DNA of 64,000 nucleotides, from NCBI GenBank assembly GCA_963760485.1, contig CAVXDP010000011.1, forward strand, positions 574 through 64,573. Direction: 5' to 3'. This document shows, one piece after another, positions 15,692 through 39,709 of the stretch (position 1 is its first letter; each line of letters begins with the position of its first letter). The notes under the pieces were generated by a model, which searched no databases, was not told the origin of the DNA, and saw nothing but the letters and a program-made list of their open reading frames with translations. Source of the DNA: Candidatus Bathyarchaeota archaeon. Its GTDB lineage: Archaea > Thermoproteota > Bathyarchaeia > 40CM-2-53-6 > CAVXDP01. The translations under genes and the position numbers were made by a program.

Positions 15692-16477
15692 TTGATGGAC
15701 TTGACCAGGTCGTACACTGTGATCGGTGTTGAAGGGCTGCCTCTTGTGCAACCCGGCGATGATGTCGGCGAGGTGATTGCCATCTGCATTACTAAGAATG
15801 GCATGACGTTAGAAGATCGGGACATAGTGGTCGTGTCCCAGAAGATTGTCTCGAAGGCCGAGGGCAGACTGGTCAATCTGGGACAACTGAGGCCATCGAA
15901 ACGCGCTGAGGAATTGGCGAAGCTTACGAATAAGGACGCCCGATTAGTCGAGTATGTATTGAAAGAGTCAAAGAGAGTTCTGGGAATTGCAGAGCAAGCC
16001 TTGGTTGTCGAAACTTACGCTGGGCTCGTGTGTCTGAATGCAGGAATTGACAAGTCAAACGTCTCCGGCAAAGACACTTATTCACTTTTGCCCAGAGACC
16101 CAGATGGCTCAGCTCATGAGATAAGATCGAAACTACGTGAGCTTACCGGGAAAAACGTGGGCGTGATAATATGTGATACGTATAGTCGGCCGTTCAGAAA
16201 TGGGATAGTTGATTTCGCCATCGGATTGGCCGGCGTAAGGCCATTCAAGGATTACAGAGGTACATGCGATCTCTTCGGAAATCAGCTTAAGTTCAAACTG
16301 GTTGCGACTGCTGATGAGATAGCGGCGGCTGCTGAACTAGTTATGGGCCAGGGTACAGAAGCGATCCCCGTGGCCATAATTAAAGGTCTAGCTAGTGTCG
16401 AATCGGATAATGATATCAAATCAACTGAGCTGATCATGCCGACATCAAGAGATCTCTATCGTGGGTCGATCAGGTAG
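15692..16477 (+). CDS. cofE: coenzyme F420-0:L-glutamate ligase
   Basis: 261-aa protein with CofE hallmarks: DIVVVSQKIVSKAEGR, NAGIDKSN and GVIICDTYSRPFRNG. Confidence 0.8.
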   Translation: MMDLTRSYTVIGVEGLPLVQPGDDVGEVIAICITKNGMTLEDRDIVVVSQKIVSKAEGRLVNLGQLRPSKRAEELAKLTNKDARLVEYVLKESKRVLGIAEQALVVETYAGLVCLNAGIDKSNVSGKDTYSLLPRDPDGSAHEIRSKLRELTGKNVGVIICDTYSRPFRNGIVDFAIGLAGVRPFKDYRGTCDLFGNQLKFKLVATADEIAAAAELVMGQGTEAIPVAIIKGLASVESDNDIKSTELIMPTSRDLYRGSIR

Positions 16478-16598
16478 TGCTCGTATCCGCGTGCGAGTAC
16501 ACCGCTAGGGCTTCTTGAATAATCCACAACAAAAGAAAGGGGAGACGAGGTCGTGGGAGATTCTGCGGAGTGACCGTAAGTCCGGACTCTACCTTTGG

Positions 16599-17126
16599 TC
16601 AATGAGCAGGTGCTTGAGCATGAGCGCGTGTTTCGATGAGCTTCCTGAGATCATCCGGTATGTTCGGTTCGTATGCCACTTTGATAACCCAGCGGAAGAC
16701 GTCTCTCTCGGTGACCATTCCAAGAAGTTTCTCACTTTCGACAACAGCGAGTCGTCGTATGTCCTTTCTCATCATCTGCTCAACGGCCTCCCAAACCTGA
16801 GCTGTGGGCACGATGGTAATGAGGGGCTTGGACATTATCTTCCCTACAATCATACCCATAACCTTCTGTCCCTTTGCAGTCCTTGTCGAGATGTCTCGTT
16901 CCGTTAGGATCCCAACGGGCTTTCCTTTCTCAGTCACAATAATACTCCCGATCTTGTTCCGAACCATGGTGCGGAGAGCTTTGCTAACCTTTTCCGTCGA
17001 CTTGATTGTTACGACTTTCGTGGACATTATCGCGGAAACTATTTCACTGGGTGGAACGGATCCAGCCAAACTTATCCTCTCTAATCTCAATTGTGTACCT
17101 GCACCATCTAAAAGGCTTTGCATCAA
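16599..17126 (-). CDS. CBS-domain pair protein
   Basis: Two CBS motifs are present: IMSTKVVTI…GILTERDI and IMSKPLITI…GMVTERDV. Confidence 0.6.
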   Translation of the reverse strand: MMQSLLDGAGTQLRLERISLAGSVPPSEIVSAIMSTKVVTIKSTEKVSKALRTMVRNKIGSIIVTEKGKPVGILTERDISTRTAKGQKVMGMIVGKIMSKPLITIVPTAQVWEAVEQMMRKDIRRLAVVESEKLLGMVTERDVFRWVIKVAYEPNIPDDLRKLIETRAHAQAPAH

Positions 17127-17266
17127 GACTCATGTTTTAGTCCAGTCCACATGTTCTGACAGCGGGCACTTTGAAGGCACACAATTGCACCGATTCTTTG
17201 AACCCACTCGTGGCCCGTCTTAAGCTTAATAGCTTATTTGCTCACCTGTAGGGACGGCGTTTCGTT

Positions 17267-18142
17267 TTGCAAATTGGAATCCTTACTAGAAGAGAGGACT
17301 CCTGGTGTGGAATGAGACTCAGAAAGGCCTTTGAGGACAGGCACAAAGATGTTAACTTCTTCGGTTTCCAAGATCTCGTTGCAAGGGTTCGACAGACTCC
17401 GACCATATCTTTTGGAAATGCGGATCTAACATCAGAATTGTCTGCCCTGTTCGTGAGACCCATTGGGAGAGGATCCTTAGACGAGATAGTATTCCAGTTG
17501 GACATTCTCCATACGTTATCGCAGGAAGGCGTATCCGTAATAAATGCGCCTTCAGCTATCGAGAAAGCCGTGGACAAATATCGGGCACTCGAACTTCTGA
17601 CCCGTGCAGGAATTCCGGTTCCGACAACGATAGTCACTGAGAATGTTAGTGAGGCGGTACGAGCGTTTGAGAGTTTTGGAGGAGAAGCTATCGTCAAACC
17701 CGTGTTTGGCTCACGTGGGATAGGCGCTGCCAGAATTTCTGACATAGATGTAGCTGAGAGGGTCTTTCGAACTCTTAGATTCTACAAGCATGTAATATAC
17801 GTTCAAGAGTTCATTCCGCACGGAACAAGCGACATAAGAGCGTTCGTGATTGACGGTGAAGTTGTTTCTGCTATGAGAAGAAATTCAAAGTCCTGGAAGA
17901 CGAATGTGAGTCGAGGAGCCACACCGACTGAGTTTGAACCCTCCCAAGAGTTAAGAAAGATAGCTGTGGACGCTGCCAAGGCGATAGGTTGTGACATCGC
18001 AGGAGTGGATGTCATGGAAAACGGTCAAAGCCTTATCGTAAATGAGGTTAATTCTCAGCCAGGATGGAAAGGACTGCAATCAATAACCAAAGTCGACATA
18101 GCTGGCAAGATAGCAGATTACGTGATATCCACAATCAGATAG
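17267..18142 (+). CDS. RimK-family ATP-grasp ligase (CofF/MptN-like alpha-L-glutamate ligase)
   Basis: The ATP-grasp core EAIVKPVFGSRGIGAARI…YVQEFIP…NEVNSQPGW is present. It lies adjacent to cofE. Confidence 0.65.
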   Translation: MQIGILTRREDSWCGMRLRKAFEDRHKDVNFFGFQDLVARVRQTPTISFGNADLTSELSALFVRPIGRGSLDEIVFQLDILHTLSQEGVSVINAPSAIEKAVDKYRALELLTRAGIPVPTTIVTENVSEAVRAFESFGGEAIVKPVFGSRGIGAARISDIDVAERVFRTLRFYKHVIYVQEFIPHGTSDIRAFVIDGEVVSAMRRNSKSWKTNVSRGATPTEFEPSQELRKIAVDAAKAIGCDIAGVDVMENGQSLIVNEVNSQPGWKGLQSITKVDIAGKIADYVISTIR

Positions 18143-18153
18143 ATGCACGGTTC

Positions 18154-19242
18154 TTATAGGTCGAATTCGATGTCCAGATTCTTAGCCAGATCCCGGAGGC
18201 TCTCCCAGACCCTGAAGTATAGAGGTACCCCATTCTTTCTGTAGTCTTCCTCCAACTCCCATTCTTTTTCGCCATGGATGTAGATTCTTTCTTGGCCCTT
18301 TGCTTTGGCTGAGTTTCTGATAGTTCTGATCATGACGTCCATTCGTTCTTTGAACTCCTCTAGTGGCGTGAAAGCGTCAATATCTATGGCTCCTAGGAAG
18401 TGCCCGATATCAGATGGTTTGGGATCTTCTGGGGTTCCCACGTGAGGTCCATAAGCTGCTCCGGGTAGTATACCTGAGAGTATGTCGACGAGGATAGATA
18501 ATCCGTAGCCCTTGTATCCGGCGGTCTCATCTAATCCCCCCAACGGTAGGAGTCCACCACGTTTTGTCTTGTATATGGAGCGCATAACGGTCTCTGTGTC
18601 GACCGCAGGGTTATTGTCTTCATCTATTGCCCACCCTGTGGGCACTGGTTTTCCGTGTCTTCTGTAGACTTCCATTTTTCCGATTGGAACGACGCTCGTG
18701 GCCATGTCCAATACATAGGGGCGCTCGTGTTTCGTGGGTACGGCGAAAGCCACTGGGTTGGTTCCGAGTATGGGTTCTATGCCGAAGGTTGGAACGACAA
18801 GTGGCCACGCGTTTGTCGTACTGAGTCCTATCATGTTCTCTTTCAATGCCATCATGGCGTAATAGCCGGCGATTCCAATATGATTGCTGTGAGTAACGGG
18901 AGCAAATCCCAGATGAGTTTTCTTGGCTTTGTCGATGCATCGCTCCATAGCTCTATAGGCAACCACTTGTCCGAGGCTGTTTTCTCCATCTATGAGTAGG
19001 CTGACAGGAGTCTCCCTTCTTATTGTAAGTCTAGCTTTGGGCGGTATCCACCCGTTCATCAACCGGTTGGCATACCTGGGCAATCGTGAGACGCCATGCG
19101 ACTCGATTCCTCTCAGATCAGCTGATACGAGAACATTCGCTGTTATCTCAGCTTCATCATGTGGAACATCCAATCGTTCTAGAACGCGTACACAGAATGC
19201 CTGCAGAGAATCTGCTTGAACATTCCGTTCTTGATCAGGCAA
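18154..19242 (-). CDS. Ldh2-family 2-hydroxyacid dehydrogenase (malate/(S)-sulfolactate/2-hydroxyglutarate dehydrogenase type, ComC/MdhII-like)
   Basis: 362-aa Mdh/Ldh_2 family protein (IESHGVSRLPRY…HSNHIGIAGYY…). It is the last gene of the fwd-mch operon. Confidence 0.7.
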   Translation of the reverse strand: MPDQERNVQADSLQAFCVRVLERLDVPHDEAEITANVLVSADLRGIESHGVSRLPRYANRLMNGWIPPKARLTIRRETPVSLLIDGENSLGQVVAYRAMERCIDKAKKTHLGFAPVTHSNHIGIAGYYAMMALKENMIGLSTTNAWPLVVPTFGIEPILGTNPVAFAVPTKHERPYVLDMATSVVPIGKMEVYRRHGKPVPTGWAIDEDNNPAVDTETVMRSIYKTKRGGLLPLGGLDETAGYKGYGLSILVDILSGILPGAAYGPHVGTPEDPKPSDIGHFLGAIDIDAFTPLEEFKERMDVMIRTIRNSAKAKGQERIYIHGEKEWELEEDYRKNGVPLYFRVWESLRDLAKNLDIEFDL

Positions 19243-19280: not shown

Positions 19281-20243
19281 CTAGAGCGTGTGGAGGCCCA
19301 TAGTTGTTTTGAGAACGTCTACGTTGATTTTTCCGGATGTATATGTGGCCCCAGTTCGGATGTTGTTTATTGAAACAACAGCTGGTGCAAAAAGGTTTGG
19401 ATCTATGTTGTAGAATTCGTAGTTGGCGGCTTTTAGGATGTCGTAGAATGGCTTGCCGTAGTCTTTGGCAGTTGAGGATGGAGCATTTGTTACATAGTCC
19501 TTCAGTTTCTCATCGTCCTCAAAATCTACTGTGTAGTAGGCTTCTCCTCCATAGTAGAGGGCGTCGTTGGTTCGCCCCATTGCCTTCTGATCCTTGGGAT
19601 GGATTGGGGCTATCGGTGCGTATCCACAACCATAGAGAATTCTCTTGATGTCAAAGCCGATCTGCATGAGCTTGTGAATTCCTGTTTCTACGATTCTTCC
19701 CGAGATCTGAATGGATCCACAGATCGATGTTGTCGGGGCCACCATCAAAACCAAGTTCTCAAAAGTAACTCCGCATTTCTTGGCCAGGTAGTCGATCGCA
19801 CATTCTGTCGGGTTTGAATTCGATTCAAGGACCAGCACAGCTCTATCGGATTTGTCTCTGTATTCAATCCTCTCGTAGACTTCTTTGGGTTTCAATGCAA
19901 GTGCTCGTCCGGGGCCCGACCCCATTGCAAAGTAGTCTTCAGTTTTTATCTGCCATCCAGCAAGTTGCGAACCCAGTGTAGAGATAGCGGGGTAGGCAGT
20001 CTCAACAAATATGCTTGGCAATGAAATGTCTCCGTACTTGGAGTATAGAATTGAAGCTTTACCTAGTCCAGCCAGACATAGCTCCGTCATAGCGATGCCA
20101 GCGCTGTATCCTCCTGGTGCCTTCACACCAGCGTCAAGAATCGTTGCACCCTTAGAATCTTTTTCAACGGTTACCCCGAGGCGCTCTTTGTCCCTCACGA
20201 TTCTTTCTACGACTCTCATGGCAGACACGTTGAGGCTTAACAT
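19281..20243 (-). CDS. mch: N5,N10-methenyl-tetrahydromethanopterin cyclohydrolase
   Basis: 320-aa protein matching Mch along its whole length (…GVKAPGGYSAGIAMTELCLAGLG…DYFAMGSGPGRALALKPKEVYE…). Confidence 0.85.
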   Translation of the reverse strand: MLSLNVSAMRVVERIVRDKERLGVTVEKDSKGATILDAGVKAPGGYSAGIAMTELCLAGLGKASILYSKYGDISLPSIFVETAYPAISTLGSQLAGWQIKTEDYFAMGSGPGRALALKPKEVYERIEYRDKSDRAVLVLESNSNPTECAIDYLAKKCGVTFENLVLMVAPTTSICGSIQISGRIVETGIHKLMQIGFDIKRILYGCGYAPIAPIHPKDQKAMGRTNDALYYGGEAYYTVDFEDDEKLKDYVTNAPSSTAKDYGKPFYDILKAANYEFYNIDPNLFAPAVVSINNIRTGATYTSGKINVDVLKTTMGLHTL

Positions 20244-20249: not shown

Positions 20250-21089
20250 CTAGTCCTCCAACTTGTCGATATATGACTCGCACCACTTCAATTGTGGATT
20301 GCTCGAAACCTTCACTGACAGACGCCCATTTCCATTCTCATTAATATCGCCTAAGAATGAGTAGAATGGCCCGAGAAGTTTCTCTTCTGCAACCTTGACC
20401 TTGTCTCGCATGTCTTCGAAGACGAAACTTGGTAAAACTGATATGAGATTTCCGAGCATAACAACCTTGCCTGCAGTCATCTGAGCGCCTGCCCTTCCCT
20501 CGCAGTCTCCTTCGACTAGAACTGTTCCATCGGTCATGTGAATTCCCGGATACATTCCGACGTTTCCTTTTACTCTTATCAGTCCGCCTCTCATCCAACA
20601 TCCAACTTCTACCCCGGCGTTACCTTCAATCACAATGGATCCAGCTTTCATTCCATTTCTGCTTCCACGATACGCTGAACCAACAAAATCTCCAGCATTT
20701 CCATGAACCTCGATAATTCCGCCGTTCATTCTCGATCCTACCCATGACCCTGCGTCGCCTTCGACAACAATTGTTCCACCAGACATTCCTTCTCCGAGAT
20801 GCATTCCCACGTCTCCCTCAATTTGAATGCCGCCAGCTGTCATTCCATGACCTATTCTTCGAATCTTCTTCAGATCTCCGAGAACTCTTATTCCAAGATC
20901 CTTCGGTGAAGTGTCGGCATTACCTTCCAGAGAGAAGATCTCCTTCAGCCGACTTTTCCTGTTTCCTTCCCAGAGGTCAAGTGAGAGAATCTCCTCATTC
21001 GATTTGCCGCTGAGAATGTCAGGTGTGATGCATGAACCATCCACGGGGACCGTTAGAGGTCGTATGAGTCTAATTGTGAGCTCTGTCAA
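20250..21089 (-). CDS. fwdC: formylmethanofuran dehydrogenase subunit C
   Basis: 279-aa protein with repeated GxxGxxMxGG beta-helix motifs (…MTAGGIQIEGDVGMHLGEGMSGGTIVVEGDAGSWVGSRMNGGIIEVHGNAGDFVG…) typical of FwdC/FmdC. Confidence 0.8.
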   Translation of the reverse strand: MTELTIRLIRPLTVPVDGSCITPDILSGKSNEEILSLDLWEGNRKSRLKEIFSLEGNADTSPKDLGIRVLGDLKKIRRIGHGMTAGGIQIEGDVGMHLGEGMSGGTIVVEGDAGSWVGSRMNGGIIEVHGNAGDFVGSAYRGSRNGMKAGSIVIEGNAGVEVGCWMRGGLIRVKGNVGMYPGIHMTDGTVLVEGDCEGRAGAQMTAGKVVMLGNLISVLPSFVFEDMRDKVKVAEEKLLGPFYSFLGDINENGNGRLSVKVSSNPQLKWCESYIDKLED

Positions 21090-22789
21090 CTAGAAGACCC
21101 TGCCACAGTGTCGATTCTCTTTGATGCCAAGAGATAGTGCTCGTCGATGGGATAGTTGCTCATCTGCATTGTGTAGTAGTCTTCGAACTTTCCCTTGAGG
21201 TCAGTGAGCATCTTTTCATGGATGTCTCGGGGTACTTTCGGATCTACCCAGAGTGTTTTTCCAGGAACAGTGTCTACAATCTCGCCATTCTTGACGAGGA
21301 TCTTTCCTTCCTTGATTGTGTATGCAGCCTTTCGAAAAGCCCGTCGTACAAGTTTGTATTGTTTCGAGGGGTTGATCTTGGTTGGATCGATTGCGTATAT
21401 GGAGATGTCCCCATCTGCTCCCAGTCCTAGGTGGCCCTTTTGCTTCAACCCCAATGTTTTGGCTGTGCCAGCTCTGGTTGCGATTGCAATATCGTAGAAG
21501 GAATATTCCCGATCGAGCCCTGGGAGGTTTAGCCGTCTGTGTGCGCTCTTGTTCAGTTTCTCGACAATCTTCAGTCTTGCTTCCTTGCTCATCAACCAAG
21601 CTATGACCCGCGGGTATTCTGTGAACGGTCCCGCGTTCGGATGGTCTGTTGTCATCTGGACGCGCCAAGGATCTTTTATCATCAAGGCAAGTTCGAGCCC
21701 TATGCCCCATTGTATGCAGTTTACATAGTTGCTCTTCTTGTAGTGAAATGGGACTATTCCACCTCCGTCTTCCACTTCCACATCTGTGTTGGCCCATTTG
21801 TTTCCTGAAATCAGGTAGAGAAGGAATTGGAAGCCTCCGTCAGCGGTCATAGTCGTTGTATCTGTAAATATGATCTGGCCTAGGTCTATGTCAACGTGCT
21901 CATGTTTGTTTACATAGTCAGCTATCTCAGGTGCGCCAGAACCGACGTTGATCCAGTCGGTTCCACTTCGTCCTGTAAACTGAACGTGGGTTATGTGAAT
22001 AATCGGTCTTCCACCATGGTATAGGTCGCGTACACAGTCCATTGTCTCTATTGTGGTTTCATAGTTTCCGGCTCTTGCTAGATTGTTTGTGTGAACGTGA
22101 ATTGAGTGAGGTAGTTTCAGATAGAGGTTTACTTTGCATAGGCCACGAATGATTTCTCTTGGAGTGATGTTGAATCTGGGTACGGTATCGTCTAGACTTG
22201 TAACATACTTTCCCCAGCCCCAGGCCTCGACTCCACCCGGATTGACGAGTTTTATCGCGTAGCCTTTTGTAGCTTTCATCATCCATGCTACATAAGCCGC
22301 ACACTCGTCGAATTTTCCGTCTCTCAAGTATTCCATGACAAACCAATTGTTTCCAAGCAGTGGAAAGCATCCTTTGTCCAGCATCGGAGTGTCATTCAAT
22401 TCTTCATGGGTATGCCTGGTCTTCATTGGTGGCGTGGCCGGTTCGAAAACAGTTGTGTACCCCATTCTAGCGTACCGATAGCCGGTGGTAAAGGTTGATG
22501 GGATTGATCTGCCAACACCAGATCTTGTATTAGACGTTCTTGTCTCTACGTCTTTTTCGTGGTCTTCGGGTCGAATCATTCGGCCTAAGTTTACCTTTGA
22601 TCCCGCGATGTGAGAGTGAACGTCGACTCCACCAGGCATGACGATCATGCCAGAGCCGTCAACTATCTCAGCTGACGAACCAACGCTATCTACAATGACC
22701 CCGTTTCTTATGGCGATGTCCATCTTTTCTCCATTCACGTTGTTCAAAGGGTCGTAGACGTACCCGTTCCTCACCAAGAGTTCAGGCAA
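21086..22789 (-). CDS. fwdA: formylmethanofuran dehydrogenase subunit A (amidohydrolase)
   Basis: 567-aa protein. The N-terminus LLVRNGYVYDP…EKMDIAIRNGVIVD…MPGGVDVHSHIAGSKVNLGRMIRPED is diagnostic for FwdA. Confidence 0.85.
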   Translation of the reverse strand: MPELLVRNGYVYDPLNNVNGEKMDIAIRNGVIVDSVGSSAEIVDGSGMIVMPGGVDVHSHIAGSKVNLGRMIRPEDHEKDVETRTSNTRSGVGRSIPSTFTTGYRYARMGYTTVFEPATPPMKTRHTHEELNDTPMLDKGCFPLLGNNWFVMEYLRDGKFDECAAYVAWMMKATKGYAIKLVNPGGVEAWGWGKYVTSLDDTVPRFNITPREIIRGLCKVNLYLKLPHSIHVHTNNLARAGNYETTIETMDCVRDLYHGGRPIIHITHVQFTGRSGTDWINVGSGAPEIADYVNKHEHVDIDLGQIIFTDTTTMTADGGFQFLLYLISGNKWANTDVEVEDGGGIVPFHYKKSNYVNCIQWGIGLELALMIKDPWRVQMTTDHPNAGPFTEYPRVIAWLMSKEARLKIVEKLNKSAHRRLNLPGLDREYSFYDIAIATRAGTAKTLGLKQKGHLGLGADGDISIYAIDPTKINPSKQYKLVRRAFRKAAYTIKEGKILVKNGEIVDTVPGKTLWVDPKVPRDIHEKMLTDLKGKFEDYYTMQMSNYPIDEHYLLASKRIDTVAGSSS

Positions 22790-22793
22790 TCAA

Positions 22794-24097
22794 TCAAACT
22801 CCTTTCAGATCTCTGACACGGTCAAGTATGGCTCTCAAGACTTCGACGTCTGTTTTCACGCCTTGAGGCGGATCTAGGAGTTTCTTGCATTCCAGAACGA
22901 CTCCATCCATTCTATAGAGCGAACCTGTCGCCTCGATACCCATAATAGCAGTTGGAAAGACGACATTGGAGACCATGGTAGTTGCTGAAACATGCGGGTC
23001 TATCGTTACCAATGGAATTTCCGACAGATATTTTGCGACTTGATATGGAAGGTGAGCTACGGGGTCAGACGAAATCACGAGTGCAGCGTCACATTCCTTT
23101 CTTGACAGTATGTCTACTGCCGAAGTTTCGCCTGGATTGTAGAATGGATATCCCCGGCTCATATCCACTGCATAAGGGTACCCCGTTATCCACGACGTCA
23201 CCTCATTTGCTCCACACACATTAAAGTGCCCACGCATTGGCATTATCAAGAACTTTGTTGACTTGTTAAGATCTCGAACAAGGGACAATGCCGCGTCCAA
23301 GTTTCTACTCTTGCCTTGGCTCATCGTTAGGCCAACACCGTAAAAGATTATGCCGAACTCACAGCCAACGAGTAAATCAGCCAGATCCTCGATTTCCTCG
23401 GAGCTCACCCCTGCAATGACCCGTTGCTCAAGCTCTTCGCCTCTCACGCACATCCTCAAAGCACATAGAAGTTCATAGTCTCTATTCGGCTCGATTTGAA
23501 TGAAAAGGTCAGCCATCTTGGCAGTATCCGTCTTTCTCACATCAACAACAATCATCTTTCTTTCTTTTCGGTCTTGCCTGAATCTTCCTTTGCTAAGTAC
23601 CGTATACCGTGCCATGTGCCGCGGATGAGCATGAACAGGGTTCGCTGCCCAATAGACAACAACGTCAGCTCTATGCCTGACTTCGCCAAGAGTGCATGTT
23701 GATATTCCAATATCTTGAGCACCTATTAGACCTGGGCCATGACAGAAGCTGGTATTGTTGTCCACGACTCCCCCTACGAGTTCAGCAAGTTCCACACCCA
23801 CACAAGTTGCCTCTGTACTCGTGAGACTCCATCCCAAGAGAATTGGGTACTTTGCGTTTGAAAGTATGGTTGCAGCTTCCGATATTGCTTCATCAAGCGA
23901 AGCTGGGTGCAACTCTCCGCCACGTCTTATCATGGGTGAGCTGTAACGTTCTGCATGTTGTCCTAGGAATTTGCCCATCGAAACAGCGCACGCGTTCTTT
24001 GCTTCAGTTATCTTCCCATCTTTGATCTTCACCTGCAGGTCATCGCATCCCGTCCCGCAGATTGTACAGACAACATCAGGAATTGTCTTTTCACTCA
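22794..24097 (-). CDS. fwdB: formylmethanofuran dehydrogenase subunit B (molybdopterin/tungstopterin oxidoreductase)
   Basis: MopB-type protein. The likely start is MSEKTIPDVVCTICGTGCDD (ATG complement at 24095-24097), which carries the N-terminal Cys motif. The upstream 100 aa of the listed 534-aa ORF overlap fwdD. Confidence 0.8.
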
Positions 24098-25177: not shown

Positions 25178-25181
25178 TTTG

Positions 25182-31477: not shown

Positions 31478-32392
31478 ATGAGAATTGGGAACGTAGAAAT
31501 TGACGACAACGATTTCGCAGAAGCATTTCCTATGTGGGCATGTAGAGCACTCATAACTGCTCAGGACGAGAAATGGGCTAGAACAGCCGCCCATACAAGT
31601 ACTGGGTTCGCTTCTTCAATAATAATGTCTCCCGCCGAGGCGGGTGTTGAAGGCCCAGTCGTTTCACCCGAGAGGACACCGGACGGCAGGGTAGGAGTTC
31701 ATATTCAAATCTACCACAGGACGGGAATGGAGCTCAAGCTACAGGTGCTTGGCCGCATTGGTCAGTGTGTCCTTACCTGCCCCACCACAGCAACATTTGA
31801 CGCTATGCCAAAGGCTGTCAAGAGACTCAAGATCGGTCGAATGATCAGGATGTTTGGCGACGGTTTTGAGTCCAAAGACACTCTTGGTGGCCGCAAGATC
31901 TGGAGGATTCCTGTAATGGAGGGCGAGTTCATCATAGAAGACAAGTTCGGCGTTAGGAGAGCTGGAGCTGGCGGGAACTTTCTGATAATGGCAGATAGCC
32001 AGAAAGCAGGTCTTGCAGCGGCTGAAAAAGCAGTTTCGGCAATTTCGACTGTTAGCGGCGTGGTTTTGCCGTTTCCTGGAGGGATCTGCAGATCTGGATC
32101 GAAGGTCGCATCAAACAAATACAAGCTGAGAGCTTCAACGAACGATCCATATTGTCCCAAGCTAAGGAGCATAACGGGAAATTCTCTAGTGCCAGACGGC
32201 GTGACAAGTGTCTACGAATTGGTCTTCAACGGAGTTACGCCAACTCTTCTGAAGAGGGCTACTGCAAGGGGGATAAGAGCGGCAGCAACTGTTCCCGGCG
32301 TTAGGAAGATAACAGCCGTGAATTTTGGTGGAAAACTCGGCCCCATCCAAATCAAACTCAAAGAAGCGCTTGATACAGAACCGGAAAAGTGA
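31478..32392 (+). CDS. ftr: formylmethanofuran:tetrahydromethanopterin N-formyltransferase
   Basis: 304-aa protein with full-length Ftr similarity (VEIDDNDFAEAFPMWACRALITAQDEKWARTAAHTSTGFASSIIMSPAEAGVEG…). Confidence 0.85.
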   Translation: MRIGNVEIDDNDFAEAFPMWACRALITAQDEKWARTAAHTSTGFASSIIMSPAEAGVEGPVVSPERTPDGRVGVHIQIYHRTGMELKLQVLGRIGQCVLTCPTTATFDAMPKAVKRLKIGRMIRMFGDGFESKDTLGGRKIWRIPVMEGEFIIEDKFGVRRAGAGGNFLIMADSQKAGLAAAEKAVSAISTVSGVVLPFPGGICRSGSKVASNKYKLRASTNDPYCPKLRSITGNSLVPDGVTSVYELVFNGVTPTLLKRATARGIRAAATVPGVRKITAVNFGGKLGPIQIKLKEALDTEPEK

Positions 32393-32398
32393 GAGAGG

Positions 32399-33454
32399 CT
32401 AGCGCGCCTTAGGCTTCAGATAGTCCGTACCTTTAGCCTCTATTGACCCTATCACTATCCTGTGGTAGACATCTCCATTTCTCTTGTCATACACTCTCTC
32501 TAGCTTTCCTCGAGCCTGAACCCTTTCGCCAAGGGACGCTATATCACAGTAGAACCCCTCGTAAGTCGCTATCTCTTTGATGTCAGCTACAGATGGCCCG
32601 TTGAGGATTCGTACTGAACCAATGCGATAGGTACCTGGCATGAACACTGATTCTCTTGCATCATCTATGATTGCTTCTGCATCAACAATGCCCTCTGGCG
32701 AGTAGATTCTGTCACCATACGTTTCGCCTATTTCTGTTTCAACCCTCCCAGGGTGGATTGAGAAGTCGGTTCCTTCAAAGATTCCTCGATTCCAGTGTCT
32801 ACGATATATCCGCTCAACTTCTGAGCGGTCTAATGGATACAACCACGCCCTCGATGTCACCCATTTCTTGACAGCGGCTTCATCAAATGAACGAAGGCTC
32901 GGGTTGCCGCTGTGCAGCATATCTAGAACCGCCGTCTTGACCTTCAGACTATTCTCTTTTCCGTAAACCGTCAAGTCGATATCTGAGAACGCCGGATTGT
33001 GAATATCTACTAATATTGAGCCTGTTATCCCAAATTGTTTCGGATCGACACGACTCTGTTTGGAAACCGTTTCCAAAAGGCGTACCGCTTTTCTTTCAAG
33101 GGGATCGAGATGTTCAGCCCCAAGTAGATCTGATAGTCTAGACTCGGGGCAGTAGTGGACTCGAATACTATACAAAGGGACTGCAGATATGAGGAGATGT
33201 TGCGTTTCTGAGTTGTATAAGTACTGAGGATAGAACTCTTCCAGATAGTCGAAAGTTCCTTTGACATGTAAGGTCGAGTAGTACTTGAGTGCTCGATCGT
33301 ATCTTCTTGTTTCGAATCCCCAGGCACCTTTACGATTAGGTACATACTTGAGGTATGCTAGTACTCTGTCGACAGGATGAACGTCGCCAACCACAGTGAA
33401 AAGGAGGCCTTCGACAGTTTCTATGTAATCTCTATTTCTGTATCCCCTTTTCAT
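32399..33454 (-). CDS. uncharacterised protein with conserved N-terminal domain plus Pol-beta-type nucleotidyltransferase motif (paralog 1)
   Basis: 351-aa protein. It carries GITGSILVDIHNPAFSDIDLTVYG, a GS-x(n)-DxD NTase signature. It shares the N-terminal motif DYIETVEGLLFTVVGDVHPVDRVLAYLKYVP and C-terminal blocks with 34237..35259. Confidence 0.5.
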   Translation of the reverse strand: MKRGYRNRDYIETVEGLLFTVVGDVHPVDRVLAYLKYVPNRKGAWGFETRRYDRALKYYSTLHVKGTFDYLEEFYPQYLYNSETQHLLISAVPLYSIRVHYCPESRLSDLLGAEHLDPLERKAVRLLETVSKQSRVDPKQFGITGSILVDIHNPAFSDIDLTVYGKENSLKVKTAVLDMLHSGNPSLRSFDEAAVKKWVTSRAWLYPLDRSEVERIYRRHWNRGIFEGTDFSIHPGRVETEIGETYGDRIYSPEGIVDAEAIIDDARESVFMPGTYRIGSVRILNGPSVADIKEIATYEGFYCDIASLGERVQARGKLERVYDKRNGDVYHRIVIGSIEAKGTDYLKPKAR

Positions 33455-33614
33455 AGGATTCCCTTACCTCAAGCAACTTGAGAGCCGGAATACAAAAGAT
33501 TCCCCCTTGACATTAGAATATCGACTTCAAATGAAAGAACATTATCATATGAATCCCATGTAAGATATTGGGAGCGTTATGAGATCACAAGATTCCACGG
33601 GTGGACCATAATAA

Positions 33615-34166
33615 ATGAAAGTGCTTGGAGTCATCGGTAGCCCCAGGAGAGATGGGAACACCTCTATCCTGATAGACGAAGTGCTCAGAGGCGCCAAAGA
33701 TGTTGGCGCTATTGTGCAGAAGATCTTCTTGAATGATCTTGATATCAAACCCTGCCAGTCTACATGCAGTGCAAACTGCAAGAAGACGGGGAACTGTACA
33801 ATAGACGATGACATGTCACCTCTTTACGACGAACTTTACGATAGTAATGTCATAATCCTCGGCACACCGGTCTACTGGTACGGCCCATCCGCTCAACTGA
33901 AAGCCTTCATTGATCGATGGTTCGCATTCTCACATCCAGAGTTCATCAACAGAATGACTGGAAAAAAGATGATCTTAGTCGCTCCATTCGAGGAGACTGA
34001 CATTTCCGCATCCGATGCCCTAGTTGAAATGATTAGTAGATCTGCGAAGTATCTGAAAATGGAGTTACTAAGAACACTGCTCGTTACCGCCGGAGAGAAA
34101 GGTGCCGTAAGAAACAACAAGGAGGCAATGACTCAGGCATACAGAATGGGACTAGATTTGAAGTAG
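33615..34166 (+). CDS. flavodoxin-like NADPH-dependent FMN reductase / iron-sulfur flavoprotein (Isf)-like
   Basis: 183-aa protein. The N-terminus VLGVIGSPRRDGNT is an FMN-reductase motif. A compact Cys cluster CQSTCSANCKKTGNC resembles the Isf Fe-S motif. Confidence 0.55.
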   Translation: MKVLGVIGSPRRDGNTSILIDEVLRGAKDVGAIVQKIFLNDLDIKPCQSTCSANCKKTGNCTIDDDMSPLYDELYDSNVIILGTPVYWYGPSAQLKAFIDRWFAFSHPEFINRMTGKKMILVAPFEETDISASDALVEMISRSAKYLKMELLRTLLVTAGEKGAVRNNKEAMTQAYRMGLDLK

Positions 34167-34236
34167 CGACGAGGTAGGAGTCTCACATGCAATTGTACGA
34201 TACATCAACCACTCAGATACGAATACGCCAGAGAAA

Positions 34237-35259
34237 TCAACTGAACACTATGAAGTCGAGCGAGGATTCCCCTACAACCAACTGGTAATACTCGTCATTC
34301 TTTGTTGAAACGTGTTCCAGATCACCATACGCAGTTATTCTCTCTCCCGTCTTAGCCTGTTCACAGAAACGTCCCCGAAAAGACAGGATCTGCTTGGGTG
34401 CTGGATCACTACGGTCAATCACAGATACTTTCTCAACTTCGTATGTACAAGGAGTAAATATTGATTCAGAATCATCAGATACAATAGCCGAGATCTTCTT
34501 TCTTCCAAGCCTCTGACACGTAAAGCTTCCATACGGTTCTCGAATCTCATCCCAGTCTCTGATGCATCTGACGAAGTAATCGCGGCCTTTGAAATTTCCT
34601 TGAAGAACCTTTCTGCGTTCATGAGTACAGAAATCATCGAACTTCATCGCTCTCTCCATAGATCTTGACTTGAACAGTCGGCCTAGGTCATCTATATCAT
34701 AGGCCTCGAACATATCCCCCGACGACATGGCATTTCTTAAAGCTTGATAGACTCTCCTTGAATTGCCTACTCCATAAATCATGATGTCCACGTCTGACTC
34801 TGGCTCCTGCAAACCGACCAATACTGATCCAGAAATGCCGACACTTGTTGTCCTGACTCCCGCGACATCTATCAATCTTCGAGCCAATTGAATAGCGTCC
34901 CGTTCAACCTCATCGTTCGATGGCTCACTGAGTCTTCTTCTAGGATCGTAGTGTGAGTGCACATTTTCCAACGGCACTGCTTGAAGTTCTCTGCCGAAGT
35001 AATCGTCGAAGTGTATGTATCCTGGAAAATATCTTCGCAGGAAATTCCATCTCTGTTCTAGATCGTAGATCTTTTTGTATCTCACACCCCTGCGTTCTCT
35101 GTCCCCATCGGGGGAAGGAACGTACCGAAGAAAGGATATGATTCGATCAACGGGATGAATAAGCCCCTTCACGTCAAAGATAAGACCTTCAATGGTTTCG
35201 ATGAAATCACCTTCCCTGCCTCTCGTCAAACCCGTTGTCAAATTGTTATCCCCACGCAT
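34237..35259 (-). CDS. uncharacterised protein with conserved N-terminal domain plus Pol-beta-type nucleotidyltransferase motif (paralog 2)
   Basis: 340-aa protein. It carries GISGSVLVGLQEPESDVDIMIYG. It shares the N-terminal motif DFIETIEGLIFDVKGLIHPVDRIISFLRYVP and the C-terminal blocks IFTPCTYEV / FRGRFCEQAKTGERITAYGDLEHV with the 32399..33454 protein. Confidence 0.5.
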   Translation of the reverse strand: MRGDNNLTTGLTRGREGDFIETIEGLIFDVKGLIHPVDRIISFLRYVPSPDGDRERRGVRYKKIYDLEQRWNFLRRYFPGYIHFDDYFGRELQAVPLENVHSHYDPRRRLSEPSNDEVERDAIQLARRLIDVAGVRTTSVGISGSVLVGLQEPESDVDIMIYGVGNSRRVYQALRNAMSSGDMFEAYDIDDLGRLFKSRSMERAMKFDDFCTHERRKVLQGNFKGRDYFVRCIRDWDEIREPYGSFTCQRLGRKKISAIVSDDSESIFTPCTYEVEKVSVIDRSDPAPKQILSFRGRFCEQAKTGERITAYGDLEHVSTKNDEYYQLVVGESSLDFIVFS

Positions 35260-35315: not shown

Positions 35316-35975
35316 ATGTCACTTTCTAGCCTCGGTTATCGGAAGGGGTCAATTTACGAGGTCATAGTAACCACATTCGACGCCCAAAAACGACCTCACG
35401 CTGCGCCCATGGGCGTCACTGTCAGCAAAGCCAGGGAGTTCATTCTACGTCCCTTTGTGGAAACAGAGACTCTGAACACGCTAAAAGTATCCAAATGTGG
35501 AGTCATCAATGTGACCTCAAATCCTTGGAGGTTCTTTAGGACTGCCCTAAAAAATGAAGCATGGGTCGGACCTCCTCCAAGCAGCTGGTTTGAGCACGCC
35601 AAGCAAGTGATGGCTCCTCGCCTAAGGTCATCCGATTCCTACGCTGAGTTCCATGTTATGGACATCTTGTGTCATGGTCCACGCCGCCTGATTAGATGTA
35701 AAGTCGTGCATGTAGATTCCACCAAGAGGGGAATCACGCCTTATTGCCGAAGCACGTCTGCGACAATAGAGAGCATCATTCACGCGACCCGAGTCAAAGA
35801 ACTACTTAAGGAAGGAGACATAAGGGGTGCAAAGAGGCTGATAGATCTCATGAAATATTACGGAGAACTGACTAACAGGGTTTCTCCGAAGTCAGATGAG
35901 GCTAAAATAATTCGCTGCTTGCTTAGGCACATGGGAGGGCTCATGACCGTCAGTCCGCAACCAAGACGCTCGTGA
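35316..35975 (+). CDS. DUF447-family protein (FMN-binding split-barrel-like; H4MPT-cluster associated)
   Basis: 219-aa protein. The N-terminus IYEVIVTTFDAQKRPHAAPMGV is typical of DUF447. It is encoded divergently from NTase paralog 2. Confidence 0.45.
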   Translation: MSLSSLGYRKGSIYEVIVTTFDAQKRPHAAPMGVTVSKAREFILRPFVETETLNTLKVSKCGVINVTSNPWRFFRTALKNEAWVGPPPSSWFEHAKQVMAPRLRSSDSYAEFHVMDILCHGPRRLIRCKVVHVDSTKRGITPYCRSTSATIESIIHATRVKELLKEGDIRGAKRLIDLMKYYGELTNRVSPKSDEAKIIRCLLRHMGGLMTVSPQPRRS

Positions 35976-37734
35976 TACTCAACTTGTTCACGTCTACTAG
36001 ACCTTTGTCAGTGATTCTTAGCTCTGGAAGAACGGCCAATGACATGAAAGATAAGACAGAGAACGGTTCGTCCAGTTTTGCTCCGAGTTTCTTAGCCGCT
36101 GCATTCAGAGCCTCGGCCTTGTTCGCCACTTCATCCGCCGGCTTGTCAGACATTAGACCCGCTATGGGGAGAGCTAATTTGGCCAGTACGTGACCTGATT
36201 CTACGGCTGTGAGACCTCCGTCCATGTCGGACACAATATTAGCAGCGAACGCCATGTCTCCGCTGCGGACTCCCAAAACGACTATGTTGTGCGCGTCGTG
36301 CGCAACTGTCGACGCTATCGCGCCTTTCTTCATGCCAAAACCTTTGACGAATCCTTTTCCAACGTTTCCGGTCGCTTTATGTCTTTCAACGACTCCAATC
36401 TTGATGATGTCGTTCGCCGGGTCGGACTCAACTATCCCATCTTTCACCCTAATGGTAAGCACGAGTTTCCGGGTGACTGCCCCGCCTTTTGTGACGTCGA
36501 TGATCAGAGCTTTGACTGGCCCGTCGGATACCTCAGATTTGATGTCGAAATCAGGGGCACATAGCTGCTTCCCAACATGAATGGTTTTCTTTGCGTATCC
36601 CGGGTATTCCGGATTGGGAATATTCGCATTAAGAATTCCATCTTCCGCGACAACACGGCCGTTGGCGATCACTTTCTCAGGTTTCATCTCTTTGAGGTTT
36701 TTCATTATGAGTACATCTGCGATTCTACCCGGCGCTATCATACCAACTTCTTTACTCACCTTGAAATGTTCAGCAGTGTTGATTGTTGCCATCTGGATCG
36801 CTCGAATCGGATCAAGCCCCTCCTCGATTGCTCGTCTGACAATATGGTTCATGTGGCCGTTGTTGACAAGATCCATTGCAGTTATGTCATCAGACACAAA
36901 AAGGCAATGTCGATGGTCAACCTTTGTCTTCAAAAGTACCTTAAGCAATTCGTTCATATTCCTCATCGTTGAACCTTCTCTCAGTTCAAGCTTCATGCCA
37001 AGACGAAGATTCTGAAGTGCATAGTCTGCTGTGGTGGCTTCGTGGTTTCCTTCAATTCTACTCGCTACGTATGCATTGAGCTGGGCTTCAGTTAGTTTTG
37101 GTGCGTGGCCTTCAACCGTCCTTCCAGATTTCTCTGTTTCTTCGATTTCCTTCAGTAGTTTCCAGCTCTTTTCAAATACGCCCGGGAAGTTCATGACCTC
37201 TCCAAGTCCGATAACGCCTTTCCAAGTCATTGCCTTCTTCACGTCATTAGCATTGATTGTTGCGCCGGTAGTCTCTAGGCCAGGAGCAGATGGTACACAT
37301 GACGGCATCTCAGCGAAGACTTTGAGTGGAAGATTGCTCGCCTCTCTCAGCATCAATTGGATACCCTTGATACCTAGTACGTTTGCAATTTCATGCGGGT
37401 CCATCATGACAGCTGTTGTTCCTCTTGGAAGTGCTGCTCGAGCAAATTGGGTTATGGTAAGCATCGAGCTCTCGATGTGAACATGTCCATCTATGAATCC
37501 CGGAACCAGATACGATCCCTTGGCATTGATGACTGACGACCTATCACATTGAATCTCTTCAACGTTCCCGACGAATGCTATTCGACCATTCTTTATCGCA
37601 AGTCCTGTGTGCTCAATAATCTCTGCAGTACAGACGTTCACAAGGCGCCCGTCTTTCACTACAAGGTCGGCCTTTCTCCGCCCAAGAGCGACATCAATGA
37701 GACTCTTTACATCATATATGTCCAAAGTGATCAT
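35950..37734 (-). CDS. ade: adenine deaminase (amidohydrolase superfamily)
   Basis: 594-aa protein (…GFIDGHVHIESSMLT…MMDPHEIANVLG…) with full-length Ade-like architecture. Confidence 0.75.
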   Translation of the reverse strand: MITLDIYDVKSLIDVALGRRKADLVVKDGRLVNVCTAEIIEHTGLAIKNGRIAFVGNVEEIQCDRSSVINAKGSYLVPGFIDGHVHIESSMLTITQFARAALPRGTTAVMMDPHEIANVLGIKGIQLMLREASNLPLKVFAEMPSCVPSAPGLETTGATINANDVKKAMTWKGVIGLGEVMNFPGVFEKSWKLLKEIEETEKSGRTVEGHAPKLTEAQLNAYVASRIEGNHEATTADYALQNLRLGMKLELREGSTMRNMNELLKVLLKTKVDHRHCLFVSDDITAMDLVNNGHMNHIVRRAIEEGLDPIRAIQMATINTAEHFKVSKEVGMIAPGRIADVLIMKNLKEMKPEKVIANGRVVAEDGILNANIPNPEYPGYAKKTIHVGKQLCAPDFDIKSEVSDGPVKALIIDVTKGGAVTRKLVLTIRVKDGIVESDPANDIIKIGVVERHKATGNVGKGFVKGFGMKKGAIASTVAHDAHNIVVLGVRSGDMAFAANIVSDMDGGLTAVESGHVLAKLALPIAGLMSDKPADEVANKAEALNAAAKKLGAKLDEPFSVLSFMSLAVLPELRITDKGLVDVNKLSITSVLVAD

Positions 37735-37903
37735 TCCAAGAAGGCGCAGGAATCTATTTACACCTGAAAATCAAGAAAAGCCTTTTGCAAACAATTTGCT
37801 GTCTAATCCTGCAGGTAACTGAAGTTAGCAAGGCACCAAACGCGGTAATGTCCAGTAAGTCTTGAATATTCCTTCATGAGATCGCATCAGACAAGGATGT
37901 GTA

Positions 37904-38845
37904 TTGACTATTCTAGAAGATGAAATTGCCTCTTGTCTTCAGCTCGCAATGCTACTGGAAACCAGCGCCTATCCGAAACCAGGGAATGTTCACAGAACTA
38001 GAGATTTTTCGGAGACTAGATTTGAGCACTTTCTTGCATCATCCGCTTCACTTGGTTCCACTTACAGATGGGCCGCCCATAGAGGGATATTGATCTCAAA
38101 AGGCATCTTGAACTTGGATGACGCTAGACTTGGGAAAGCCATCCGGCTTGGAGTCGAGAACATGATGCGATGGCAGAAGGGTGGAAACACAAGTCTCGGA
38201 ACCATTCTGCTACTTACCCCTATTGCAACTTCAGCGGCGTTGACGTTGATAAGCGGCAAGTTAGAAATGAAAACACTGCGTGTCAATTTGATCAAATTAC
38301 TACAATCCGCAACCCACATTGATTCATTGGACGTCTACAAAGCAATTTCAAGAGCATCACCTGGTGGAATCGGATCAAGTGATGAACTAGACGTAATGTC
38401 ACCTGAATCACTGGATCATATTGAAAAGAACCATGTCGGACTACTGAGAACTTTCAAGATATCAGCTAGACGCGATTCTATTGCATCTGAGTGGATCAGC
38501 GGCTATAGAACAACTTTCGAGATCGGCTATCCGTACTTCGCACGCGCCCTCGATGACGGCTTGGACATAAACACTGCCACAGTCAATACATTTCTCAAGA
38601 TCCTTTCGACGGTCCCGGACACACTGATAGCACGAAAGGTTGGAATCAAGAAAACACGTTATGTTTCTGCACGAGCCAGGGAATGCCTAAATGCCGGCGG
38701 ACTAGCAACAAGGAAAGGGTTCAGGTTAGTCAATAGACTAGACCAAGACCTGAGAACTCCTAATCACGAACTTAACCCAGGAACAACGGCAGACTTGGTC
38801 TCTGCGGCTCTTGCTCTCGCGCTCCTACAAGGACTTAGGCCCTAG
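37904..38845 (+). CDS. CitG/MdcB-family triphosphoribosyl-dephospho-CoA synthase homolog (H4MPT-biosynthesis associated)
   Basis: 313-aa protein. The N-terminus ETSAYPKPGNVHRTRDF is the CitG signature. Homologs occur in archaeal-type H4MPT gene sets. Confidence 0.6.
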   Translation: MTILEDEIASCLQLAMLLETSAYPKPGNVHRTRDFSETRFEHFLASSASLGSTYRWAAHRGILISKGILNLDDARLGKAIRLGVENMMRWQKGGNTSLGTILLLTPIATSAALTLISGKLEMKTLRVNLIKLLQSATHIDSLDVYKAISRASPGGIGSSDELDVMSPESLDHIEKNHVGLLRTFKISARRDSIASEWISGYRTTFEIGYPYFARALDDGLDINTATVNTFLKILSTVPDTLIARKVGIKKTRYVSARARECLNAGGLATRKGFRLVNRLDQDLRTPNHELNPGTTADLVSAALALALLQGLRP

Positions 38846-39709
38846 AGCCTGTCGTGAAACACGCATGTTTTCATGATTCAATCTTCTCACGATCACGATC
38901 GGAGTATGCTTAACGTTCTGGAGCATTTCCCACGTGACTCGATGCGGATCCACACGAAAGGTTTCACCCATATCCCAAACAGTTCTTCCTGCTCCGGAAC
39001 CCCTAACTTTGTTCGCTACGGCAGAGATCTGCAGAGCTTCATTAGTACCTAGATTCTCTCCAACCACAGCTAGAGGAGTAGACCTTGGAGTCAGTTTCAA
39101 CAATCTTCCAAAGACGTAGGCGAATAGCCCGAAACATCTAACTCCAGAAACAGTTGTACGCCTAACACTCATGTGGAACCCAGAAAGACTATACGTCTTA
39201 TCGGAGTCGACAACCAATACCGTTGTCTTCTTTCCTGTCTCGACATAGAGTCGCTCTTGAATCCTTGTCGCCTCTCTCTTTGGATCATCAAGAGGCAAGG
39301 CAACCAGAGAGAACGGAAGGTTACTTGCATCGATTCCCCCTTCTGATCCGTGCCTCAGAGCCTGAATGAAGCCCGTTTCGTCAATCGCCAATTGCTTGTG
39401 AGCTGCACCTTCTAGAATTGGGTAGTTTCTCAGCCGTGAGATATTCGTTGGGCTCAGATGGCACAGCCGACCCAGAACTCGACCCCAGACAACCCTCATC
39501 CAACCCACTGCAATCAGCTTTGCCAAGAAGCGTGGTTTGATAGGCGCCTCATCAATGACGTGTCCAGTGGCCACTGAAAGCGCCTTCTCAGATACTACCA
39601 AGAAGTCACCTTCATGAATAATCTTGGAAACGTGAACCAATAGATCTTCCATCCATTCATCCATCGGCTTCCAATACGAAGTTTGGACAGCTCTTGCAAT
39701 GTACTTCAA
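38825..39709 (-). CDS. CofE-like (F420-0:gamma-glutamyl ligase family) paralog
   Basis: 294-aa protein. EGDFLVVSEKALSVATGHVI and GGIDASNLP…TTVLVVDSDKTYS parallel the CofE motifs at 15692..16477. Overall divergence from that gene is strong. Confidence 0.5.
   Translation of the reverse strand: MKYIARAVQTSYWKPMDEWMEDLLVHVSKIIHEGDFLVVSEKALSVATGHVIDEAPIKPRFLAKLIAVGWMRVVWGRVLGRLCHLSPTNISRLRNYPILEGAAHKQLAIDETGFIQALRHGSEGGIDASNLPFSLVALPLDDPKREATRIQERLYVETGKKTTVLVVDSDKTYSLSGFHMSVRRTTVSGVRCFGLFAYVFGRLLKLTPRSTPLAVVGENLGTNEALQISAVANKVRGSGAGRTVWDMGETFRVDPHRVTWEMLQNVKHTPIVIVRRLNHENMRVSRQALGPKSL

Follow-up and report, generated by a model that had tools for sequence, protein, structure and literature searches.

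What kind of archaeon packs the enzymes of one-carbon (C1) transfer and the genes for their cofactors into a single 24-kb block, and what would it use them for? The question is raised by positions 15692-39709 of a 64-kb stretch of contig CAVXDP010000011.1 (the window; 64,000 nt), where genes acting on methanofuran (MFR) and tetrahydromethanopterin (H4MPT) lie among genes for H4MPT and coenzyme F420. The block is probably a chromosomal C1-carrier locus of a bathyarchaeon, joining methyl-branch steps of the Wood-Ljungdahl pathway with H4MPT cofactor genes, most likely in a genome without methyl-coenzyme M reductase (mcr). Bathyarchaeia are among the most abundant uncultured archaea of sediments, and their carbon metabolism has been inferred almost wholly from genomes.

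Genes were identified by profile matches to NCBIfam/TIGRFAM and Pfam, with equivalog cut-offs as given for each model. Most of the 25 genes at 15692-39709 could be assigned in this way. An earlier sequence-only reading had named fwdDBAC-mch-ldh2, ftr, mpt genes, a dihydropteroate synthase (DHPS)-like gene, a CitG-like gene, DUF447, a CofE-like gene, DUF1464, an ATP-grasp ligase and cofE, and each has a profile match where it was placed. The ends of the cluster fall exactly on the start of cofE (15692) and the start of the CofE-like gene (39709). About 18 of the 25 genes belong to MFR, H4MPT or F420 chemistry (hypergeometric P of 1e-22 to 1e-28, on assumed totals of 35-60 such genes among 1500-2500). 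Because the genes form about 15 small transcription units of alternating orientation, the locus is a co-localization and not a single operon.

A minus-strand operon at 24502-18154 reads fwdD-fwdB-fwdA-fwdC-mch-ldh2, with gaps of 0-38 nt. It starts with fwdD (24095-24502; NF042908, 132 bits) and fwdB (22794-24098; TIGR03129, 566 bits, above cut-off), whose start overlaps fwdD as ATGA; the two are 135 aa and 434 aa long in the gene call of an independent contig, L105, described below. The fwdB frame is uninterrupted and has no in-frame TGA, so FwdB is probably of the cysteine type. Next come fwdA (21086-22789; TIGR03121, 806 bits, above cut-off; 64-88% identical to Bathyarchaeia homologues), fwdC (20250-21089; TIGR03122, 263 bits, above cut-off) and the methenyl-H4MPT cyclohydrolase gene mch (19281-20243; TIGR03120, 409 bits). 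The last gene, 38 nt from mch, is ldh2 (18154-19242; PF02615, 414 bits), which encodes an Ldh_2-family 2-hydroxyacid dehydrogenase. The formyl-MFR:H4MPT formyltransferase gene ftr lies 7 kb from the operon on the plus strand (31478-32392; TIGR03119, 372 bits; PF01913 and PF02741). Upstream of it on the same strand is a Flavin_Reduct-family flavin reductase gene (30868-31320; PF01613, 152 bits), kept in three relatives (L011, L012, L091). FwdA, B, C and D, Ftr and Mch of the archaeal MFR/H4MPT methyl branch are all present, and all C1 enzyme genes are intact.

By homology, Fwd would fix CO2 on methanofuran as formyl-methanofuran, Ftr would transfer the formyl group to H4MPT and Mch would cyclize the product to methenyl-H4MPT; in the archaeal Wood-Ljungdahl pathway these would be the three opening steps of the methyl branch, which uses methanofuran and H4MPT. 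The pathway is most likely run without mcr, whether for acetogenic CO2 fixation or for oxidation of methyl groups, the absence of mcr from the whole genome being inferred. An H4MPT Wood-Ljungdahl pathway is reported to be nearly universal in Bathyarchaeia and complete in the orders examined (PMC10321748), and termite-gut Bathyarchaeia lack mcr (PMC7886697).

To place the locus, we fetched loci labelled L001-L105 and ran all window proteins against these 105 loci by tblastn. Eighty of them (L011-L090) come from an Ftr-anchored pattern scan, which is biased by the peptide patterns used and has no methanogens in its list. FwdA has one 100%-identical entry at JGI and other homologues at 81-88% identity; homologues that carry taxon names (64-69%) are all Bathyarchaeota or Bathyarchaeia, save single metagenome-assembled genomes (MAGs) labelled Hecatellales and Nitrososphaeria. 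Ftr is 88% identical to that of a Bathyarchaeia MAG, GCA_964562925.1, followed by MAGs labelled Bathyarchaeia, Hecatellales or Nitrososphaeria at 57-75% and then by bacteria at 43-50%. The 29 best Ftr-matching loci (L011-L039) bear these same three archaeal labels, except one labelled Deltaproteobacteria. By its FwdA and Ftr homologues the lineage is Bathyarchaeia, in keeping with the sequence-only suggestion of a non-methanogenic H4MPT-using archaeon.

The clustering had been called unusual. The cluster is real but typical of its clade. Two relatives with FwdA at 88% (L091, L092) carry ftr, the flavin reductase gene, DUF1464, mptG, mptA, mptE, mptD, the DHPS-like gene, a small Cys-rich open reading frame (ORF; u129) and fwdDBAC-mch on one contig in window order. 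Three others (L007-L009) carry fwdDBAC-mch-ldh2, the ATP-grasp gene, a CBS-domain gene, cofE, enolase and pyrophosphatase (PPase). GCA_964562925.1 (L011) runs from mptD through the CofE-like gene in window order and then into an eIF-2B-family gene. Since both halves are linked in L091 and L092, and each half is covered in L007-L009 and L011, the layout is, by gene order, lineage-typical and not an oddity of a single genome. The sequence-only reading had taken a shared arrangement in closely related methanogens, together with mcr elsewhere on the contig set, as grounds for refutation; half of this is borne out, in that relatives share the clustering, although they are Bathyarchaeia and not methanogens.

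Farther out in the class the pieces come apart. In distant Bathyarchaeia, ftr stands alone in L016, L036 and L037, and fwdDBAC-mch lies beside ftr in L024, L026 and L031. Two loci (L018, L019) hold 9-10 window genes, with mch-fwdCABD beside ftr, a nucleotidyltransferase-like gene (u351), citG, the CofE-like paralogue cofE2 and mptN; in other Bathyarchaeia, mtd adjoins fwd. Across these loci the supercluster is the most consolidated state of a class-wide tendency, stable at about genus or family level.

The gene content after mch also varies. GCA_964562925.1, an 85%-identical species, has cooC and carbon monoxide dehydrogenase/acetyl-CoA synthase (CODH/ACS; cdh) genes after mch (L001 6285-14359). 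The window lineage has ldh2, the ATP-grasp ligase gene, the CBS gene and cofE there (15692-19242). A rearrangement breakpoint lies directly 3' of mch between the two.

The cofactor genes surround the C1 enzymes on both sides. Left of the fwd operon is cofE, for coenzyme F420-0:L-glutamate ligase (15692-16477, plus strand; TIGR01916, 286 bits, above cut-off; PF01996, 250 bits), which has the same position in L007-L009 and whose product would elongate F420. A CBS-domain protein gene follows (16599-17126, minus; CBS-type matches), a conserved passenger or possible regulator that lies between cofE and the ATP-grasp gene in L007-L009 too. The third gene on this side encodes a RimK-family, MptN-like ATP-grasp ligase (17267-18142, plus; TIGR00768, 220 bits, above cut-off; PF08443), a candidate H4MPT:alpha-L-glutamate ligase. 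It scores 261 bits against the MptN model NF040720 (cut-off 350), and in bacterial loci, as in distant Bathyarchaeia, its homologue is a neighbour of mch or citG.

To the right, u129 (24788-25177, plus) lies between the DHPS-like gene and fwdD; it has no family match in profile scans, and 62-67% identical homologues hold the same place in L008, L091 and L092. A minus-strand pterin operon follows. Its DHPS-like gene is of the MJ0107 type, with DUF6513, Pterin_bind and DUF4346 (25182-26748; TIGR00284 on both of its pieces, 25182-26492 and 26455-26748). Then come the archaeal dihydroneopterin aldolase gene mptD (26779-27189; PF04038, 116 bits; intact), an mptE-like gene for 6-hydroxymethyl-dihydropterin diphosphokinase (27195-27957; PF01973; split) and a remnant of the GTP cyclohydrolase gene mptA (28003-28587; TIGR00294, model positions 177-301 only). 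Enzymes of this branch would make the pterin and couple it, the DHPS-like protein acting as the condensing enzyme. The arylamine branch is represented by mptG (28706-29680, plus; TIGR00144, 219 bits, cut-off 113.5; NF040726, 253 bits), for beta-ribofuranosylaminobenzene 5'-phosphate synthase, the committing step, which makes the arylamine ribotide. We found no MptB in the window.

Beyond mptG lies DUF1464 (29692-30780, minus; PF07318, 341 bits), which in bacterial loci has the DHPS-like gene and fhc as neighbours. After it come the flavin reductase gene with ftr, the 351-aa protein u351, an FMN_red-family NAD(P)H-dependent FMN reductase gene (33615-34166, plus; PF03358, 80 bits) and u340, a 340-aa paralogue of u351. 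The right end consists of DUF447, an adenine deaminase gene, a CitG-family gene and the CofE-like gene. DUF447 (35316-35975, plus; PF04289) immediately precedes the DHPS-like gene in L094-L096 and L040; both of its structures in the PDB, 2nr4 and 2ptf, are of uncharacterized proteins. The CofE-like F420_ligase-family paralogue cofE2 (38825-39709, minus; PF01996, 54 bits, partial) recurs in a citG-cofE2-mptN trio in L018 and L019.

The CitG-family gene (37904-38845, plus; PF01874, 238 bits) encodes a triphosphoribosyl-dephospho-CoA synthase-like protein and stands beside fhc in bacterial loci. Its product scores 54-81 bits against the CitG/MdcB equivalog models, whose cut-offs are 272-477, and the genes around it are H4MPT genes, with no citrate or malonate lyase genes nearby; neither equivalog similarity nor lyase context marks it as a true CitG enzyme. 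The adenine deaminase gene (35950-37734, minus; TIGR01178, 580 bits, above cut-off) is divergent from it and has the same place in L011 only. CitG-type reactions release adenine. The divergent pairing may be functional, and the adjacency occurs only in the closest relatives.

Because the CitG-like, DUF447, DUF1464, CofE-like and ATP-grasp genes are co-localized with H4MPT genes in both domains, they are candidates for building the H4MPT side chain, and probably do so, although no member of this set scores above the equivalog cut-off for an enzyme of established activity. Ldh_2, kept next to mch in L007-L009, probably makes the (S)-2-hydroxyglutarate of the methanopterin side chain by reducing 2-oxoglutarate. 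Its best NCBIfam match is L-sulfolactate dehydrogenase (ComC) at 268 bits, under the cut-off of 500, and a role for ComC in supplying (S)-hydroxyglutarate for methanopterin has been proposed from the methanogen system (PMC5695019). Coenzyme M synthesis is disfavoured as its function, since it makes little sense without mcr.

Two uncharacterized paralogues lie near ftr. The u351 gene (32399-33454, minus) is convergent with ftr and predicts a Pol-beta-type nucleotidyltransferase with a C-terminal barrel resembling an oligonucleotide/oligosaccharide-binding (OB) fold; u340 (34237-35259, minus) is 33% identical to it and has the GS...DxD signature in common. Weak Pfam NTP_transf_2 (PF01909) matches appear in 25 of the 33 members of the family. 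The AlphaFold (AF2) model of u351 has a pLDDT of 94.3 and a pTM of 0.90. Foldseek of this model against the PDB gave no match at E <= 0.001 and no full-length counterpart, and sequence and profile searches of the PDB found nothing. The likeness of the model is at the level of domains, to SSB/RPA OB folds and to ANT(2'')/CCA-adding nucleotidyltransferases. Homologues come nearly all from Bathyarchaeia. In 12 archaeal loci u351 adjoins ftr (13 when u340 is also counted), and u340 lies near ftr, citG or cofE2 in six (L005, L011, L015, L018, L023, L028); neither was detected in any bacterial locus examined. A nucleic acid would be as suitable a substrate for the predicted OB fold as a cofactor.

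The mpt genes had been listed as present, which holds for mptD, mptE and mptG. The mptA in the cluster is dead. Of the 311-aa MptA of L091, the window retains only residues 1-26, 26-42 (in another frame) and 158-311, so that about 115 internal codons are lost and a frameshift is added; L091 and L011 have full-length genes. L105 (ENA ERZ27247924), an independent short-read contig, aligns with window positions 22396-35058 at 99.70% identity (35 mismatches, three one-base gaps). It shares the deletion and has one extra frameshift at window position 28211. Because an independent contig has the identical deletion, mptA is truly dead in the population: a true pseudogene. A second gene is missing outright. 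In relatives at 88%, mptD and the DHPS-like gene are separated by a gene for a PF02441 flavoprotein of about 220 aa (L008 1047-1703; L091 9060-9725); this gene is cleanly absent from the window (gap 26749-26778) and from L105. We take the PF02441 family to include the AfpA/DmrB dihydromethanopterin reductase.

Several other apparent truncations are of a different sort. An extra base at 27449 breaks mptE, which is intact (253 aa) in L105 and L091, and an extra base at 26487 splits the DHPS-like gene, which is intact (521 aa) in L105, L008 and L091; these are the two one-base breaks that L105 covers. One-base frame breaks also affect the PPase gene (13750), the enolase gene twice (14390, 14643) and the DNA ligase gene (about 52380), where the KYDG motif falls in another frame. 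Housekeeping genes are hit, the sites are not within long homopolymers, and other long-read MAG loci (L058, L059, L077, L086) are comparably fragmented, which suggests consensus errors of long-read assembly and not pseudogenes. Exact-sequence look-ups of Mch and CofE found no further independent contigs over the enolase and PPase frameshifts. A PAS-protein gene at 2667-4539 is probably also split by a frame break.

How far can the cofactor genes be pressed? At its most ambitious, the cluster would be a 'Rosetta stone' for late methanopterin steps, with a tailoring role for each of CitG-like, Ldh_2 and the nucleotidyltransferase/OB paralogues, plus another pterin-precursor route; we think this unlikely as a whole. 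CitG-like would attach ribose-5-phosphate from a nucleotide donor and release the base, which adenine deaminase would salvage. Ldh_2 would supply hydroxyglutarate. The paralogues would activate or attach the hydroxyglutaryl-phosphate end, or carry out some other Bathyarchaeia-specific cofactor tailoring; to our knowledge, the Methylobacterium cofactor, at least, lacks that end. With mptA and the flavoprotein gene gone, this species may also use a different pterin-precursor route.

The same losses could instead mean that the H4MPT-biosynthesis part of the locus is decaying, with de novo synthesis lost or being lost and the pterin precursor scavenged or the pathway unused. The mptA deletion in two independent assemblies, the further frameshift in the short-read contig, the missing flavoprotein gene and the broken mptE and DHPS-like genes all point this way. 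The last two are intact in the 99.7%-identical L105, however, the one-base breaks extend to enolase, PPase and DNA ligase and look like consensus indels (as in L077 and L086), all C1 enzymes are intact, and another part of the genome could encode a second GTP cyclohydrolase. We regard decay as distinctly improbable.

Exchange with bacteria fares worse. The 51 bacterial loci among the Ftr-anchored set (L040-L090) come from Thermoleophilaceae/Solirubrobacteraceae, other Actinomycetota, Anaerolineae/Chloroflexota, Clostridia and one contig labelled Synergistaceae. Many of the longer ones hold DUF1464, DHPS-like, CitG-like, fhcB, fhcA, ftr (fhcD), fhcC, mch, MptN-like and mptG genes within 20 kb, compact islands being found, for example, at L040 2192-14500 and L057 149-18700. 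L040 (Clostridiales PH28_bin88) also has a FwdD homologue and DUF447, and its Ftr has the highest bacterial identity (50%). With so similar a gene set packed around fhc-mch, and with bacteria (43-50%) as the next-best Ftr matches after archaeal MAGs among the pattern-scan loci, the cluster might be an island gained by horizontal exchange with bacteria bearing 'archaeal-like' C1 islands, rather than an ancestral locus of Bathyarchaeia. That list has no methanogens, however, and so cannot rank bacteria above them. The closest homologues of every gene are from Bathyarchaeia, at 60-88% identity against 30-50% for bacteria. G+C stays level at 0.46-0.49 over the whole window, uniform with the flanks and with no foreign composition, and the window keeps the archaeal arrangement, fwdDBAC with ftr apart from it, where bacteria have ftr embedded in fhcB-A-D-C. 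Such an exchange is very improbable.

Slighter still is the chance of a methane- or alkane-metabolizing archaeon with mcr/acr and mtr elsewhere in its genome, the cluster serving upper (reverse) methanogenesis: mcr/acr does occur in BA1, BA2 and one Jinwuousiales MAG (PMC10321748), the u351 homologues include a BA1 protein (44% identity) and 64 kb says little of a genome of 1.5-3 Mb (a general figure), but mcr/acr is found in only 3 of 304 Bathyarchaeia MAGs (PMC10321748), the window and all contigs of relatives that were examined showed neither mcr nor mtr, and the fwd operon of the closest relative adjoins CODH/ACS genes, which fits the Wood-Ljungdahl pathway. The sequence-only reading had likewise seen no mcr or mtr, and scans of the remaining window ORFs upheld it. 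On the prior for its class, this bathyarchaeon is very unlikely to carry mcr.

Some findings weigh against a Wood-Ljungdahl locus that makes its own cofactor. Profile scans of the 64-kb window found none of mtd, hmd, mer and cdh among its ORFs, and relatives have mtd or cdh beside fwd; pathway completeness is therefore unproven. With mptA dead and the AfpA/DmrB-family flavoprotein gene of relatives absent, de novo pterin synthesis from the locus alone is incomplete, and the window's own sequence has frameshifts in mptE and the DHPS-like gene. None of the MptN-like, ComC-like and CitG-like proteins reaches the equivalog cut-off of the characterized enzyme, so any specific activity assigned to them is a guess. 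Gene identities, lineage and conserved layout nonetheless favour a bathyarchaeal C1-carrier locus.

Two possible signs of common design in the cluster did not hold up. Strand alternation, with 15 switches at 24 junctions against 10 at 22 elsewhere in the window, is not distinctive. A 13-mer, AATCCTGCAGGTA, is identical at 24644-24656 and 37805-37817, both in divergent intergenic (promoter) regions of the cluster, and all four CCTGYAGG sites of the window fall in the cluster. Neither the 13-mer nor these sites were found in L008, L011, L091 or other relatives, so we do not treat the 13-mer as a conserved operator. The window gave no matches in Rfam or tRNA scans.

Other window ORFs encode a membrane pyrophosphatase, enolase, an ABC transporter, an eIF-2B-family protein, a class II aminoacyl-tRNA synthetase, a tRNA-splicing endonuclease, ThyA, DNA ligase, acyl-CoA synthetase and aldehyde:ferredoxin oxidoreductase, among others. 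The archaeal-type thyA reported as nearby is present at 48455-49207 (TIGR03283, 118 bits, below cut-off), but unrelated genes separate it from the cluster, whose end is 8.7 kb away. Between the CofE-like and eIF-2B-family genes, 39860-43256 holds a NitT/TauT-type ABC transporter (a fused double permease and an ATPase) and an AAA_assoc_C protein. The corresponding junction of L011 lacks these genes, which points to an insertion or deletion between close relatives. At 5900-11450 many short ORFs (73-145 aa) occupy both strands, together with a single longer ORF (7177-7965; 262 aa) that has a V4R domain; those short ORFs that were scanned gave no family matches, no RNA genes were found there, and the region could be fragmented or fast-evolving. 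At 54415-58350 an AMP-forming acyl-CoA synthetase gene adjoins genes for aldehyde:ferredoxin oxidoreductase and its 4Fe-4S ferredoxin; the set may be a redox module for acids and aldehydes in fermentative or acetogenic metabolism.

The locus leaves the view of its lineage unchanged, as an H4MPT Wood-Ljungdahl pathway without mcr is already the published expectation. Its value lies in the mptA pseudogene and in what it joins: C1 enzymes with nearly all known and suspected methanopterin genes. This gives a compact list of candidates for methanopterin steps that lack enzymes (CitG-like, DUF447, DUF1464, CofE-like and the nucleotidyltransferase/OB paralogues), on a 24-kb fragment convenient for heterologous reconstruction.

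Among known systems, methanogens have homologous enzymes for the same reactions, as in Methanocaldococcus jannaschii (MptA, MptD, MptE, MptG, MptN, ComC, Fwd, Ftr, Mch). As a rule they scatter H4MPT and methanofuran genes over many places and also have mtr and mcr. The NCBIfam equivalog cut-offs that the MptN-like and ComC-like proteins of the window fall under are built on the methanogen enzymes.

The 'archaeal-like' C1 islands of Methylobacterium and methanotrophs (fhcCDAB, mch, mptG and orf-numbered H4MPT genes) gather 19 H4MPT-linked genes in a few islands (PMC3615186). The sequence-only reading had drawn this likeness, and it is sound: like the window, bacterial loci co-localize C1 genes and mch with DUF1464, DHPS-like, CitG-like, RimK/MptN-like and mptG genes, and sometimes DUF447. 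The differences lie in arrangement and membership. The window has fwdDBAC with FwdD and a separate ftr, whereas bacterial loci read B-A-ftr-C with ftr embedded, and it has neither fae nor mtdB. Its cofE, CofE-like paralogue, Ldh_2 and two nucleotidyltransferase/OB paralogues were not detected in the bacterial loci, and its proteins are only 30-50% identical to bacterial ones. By gene order and the absence of fae and mtdB, the window is not a member of the bacterial island type; the likeness is at the level of gene content.

The closest match is with the H4MPT Wood-Ljungdahl loci of Bathyarchaeia (PMC10321748, PMC7886697), which are of the same lineage and have Fwd, Ftr and Mch and no mcr. The fwdDBAC-mch core is identical in every bathyarchaeal contig examined. 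Unlike in L001, L003 and L005, the fwd operon of the window is not adjacent to mtd or cdh; in the window clade a single 24-kb block unites it with the pterin operon, mptG, ftr and at least six H4MPT-associated genes.

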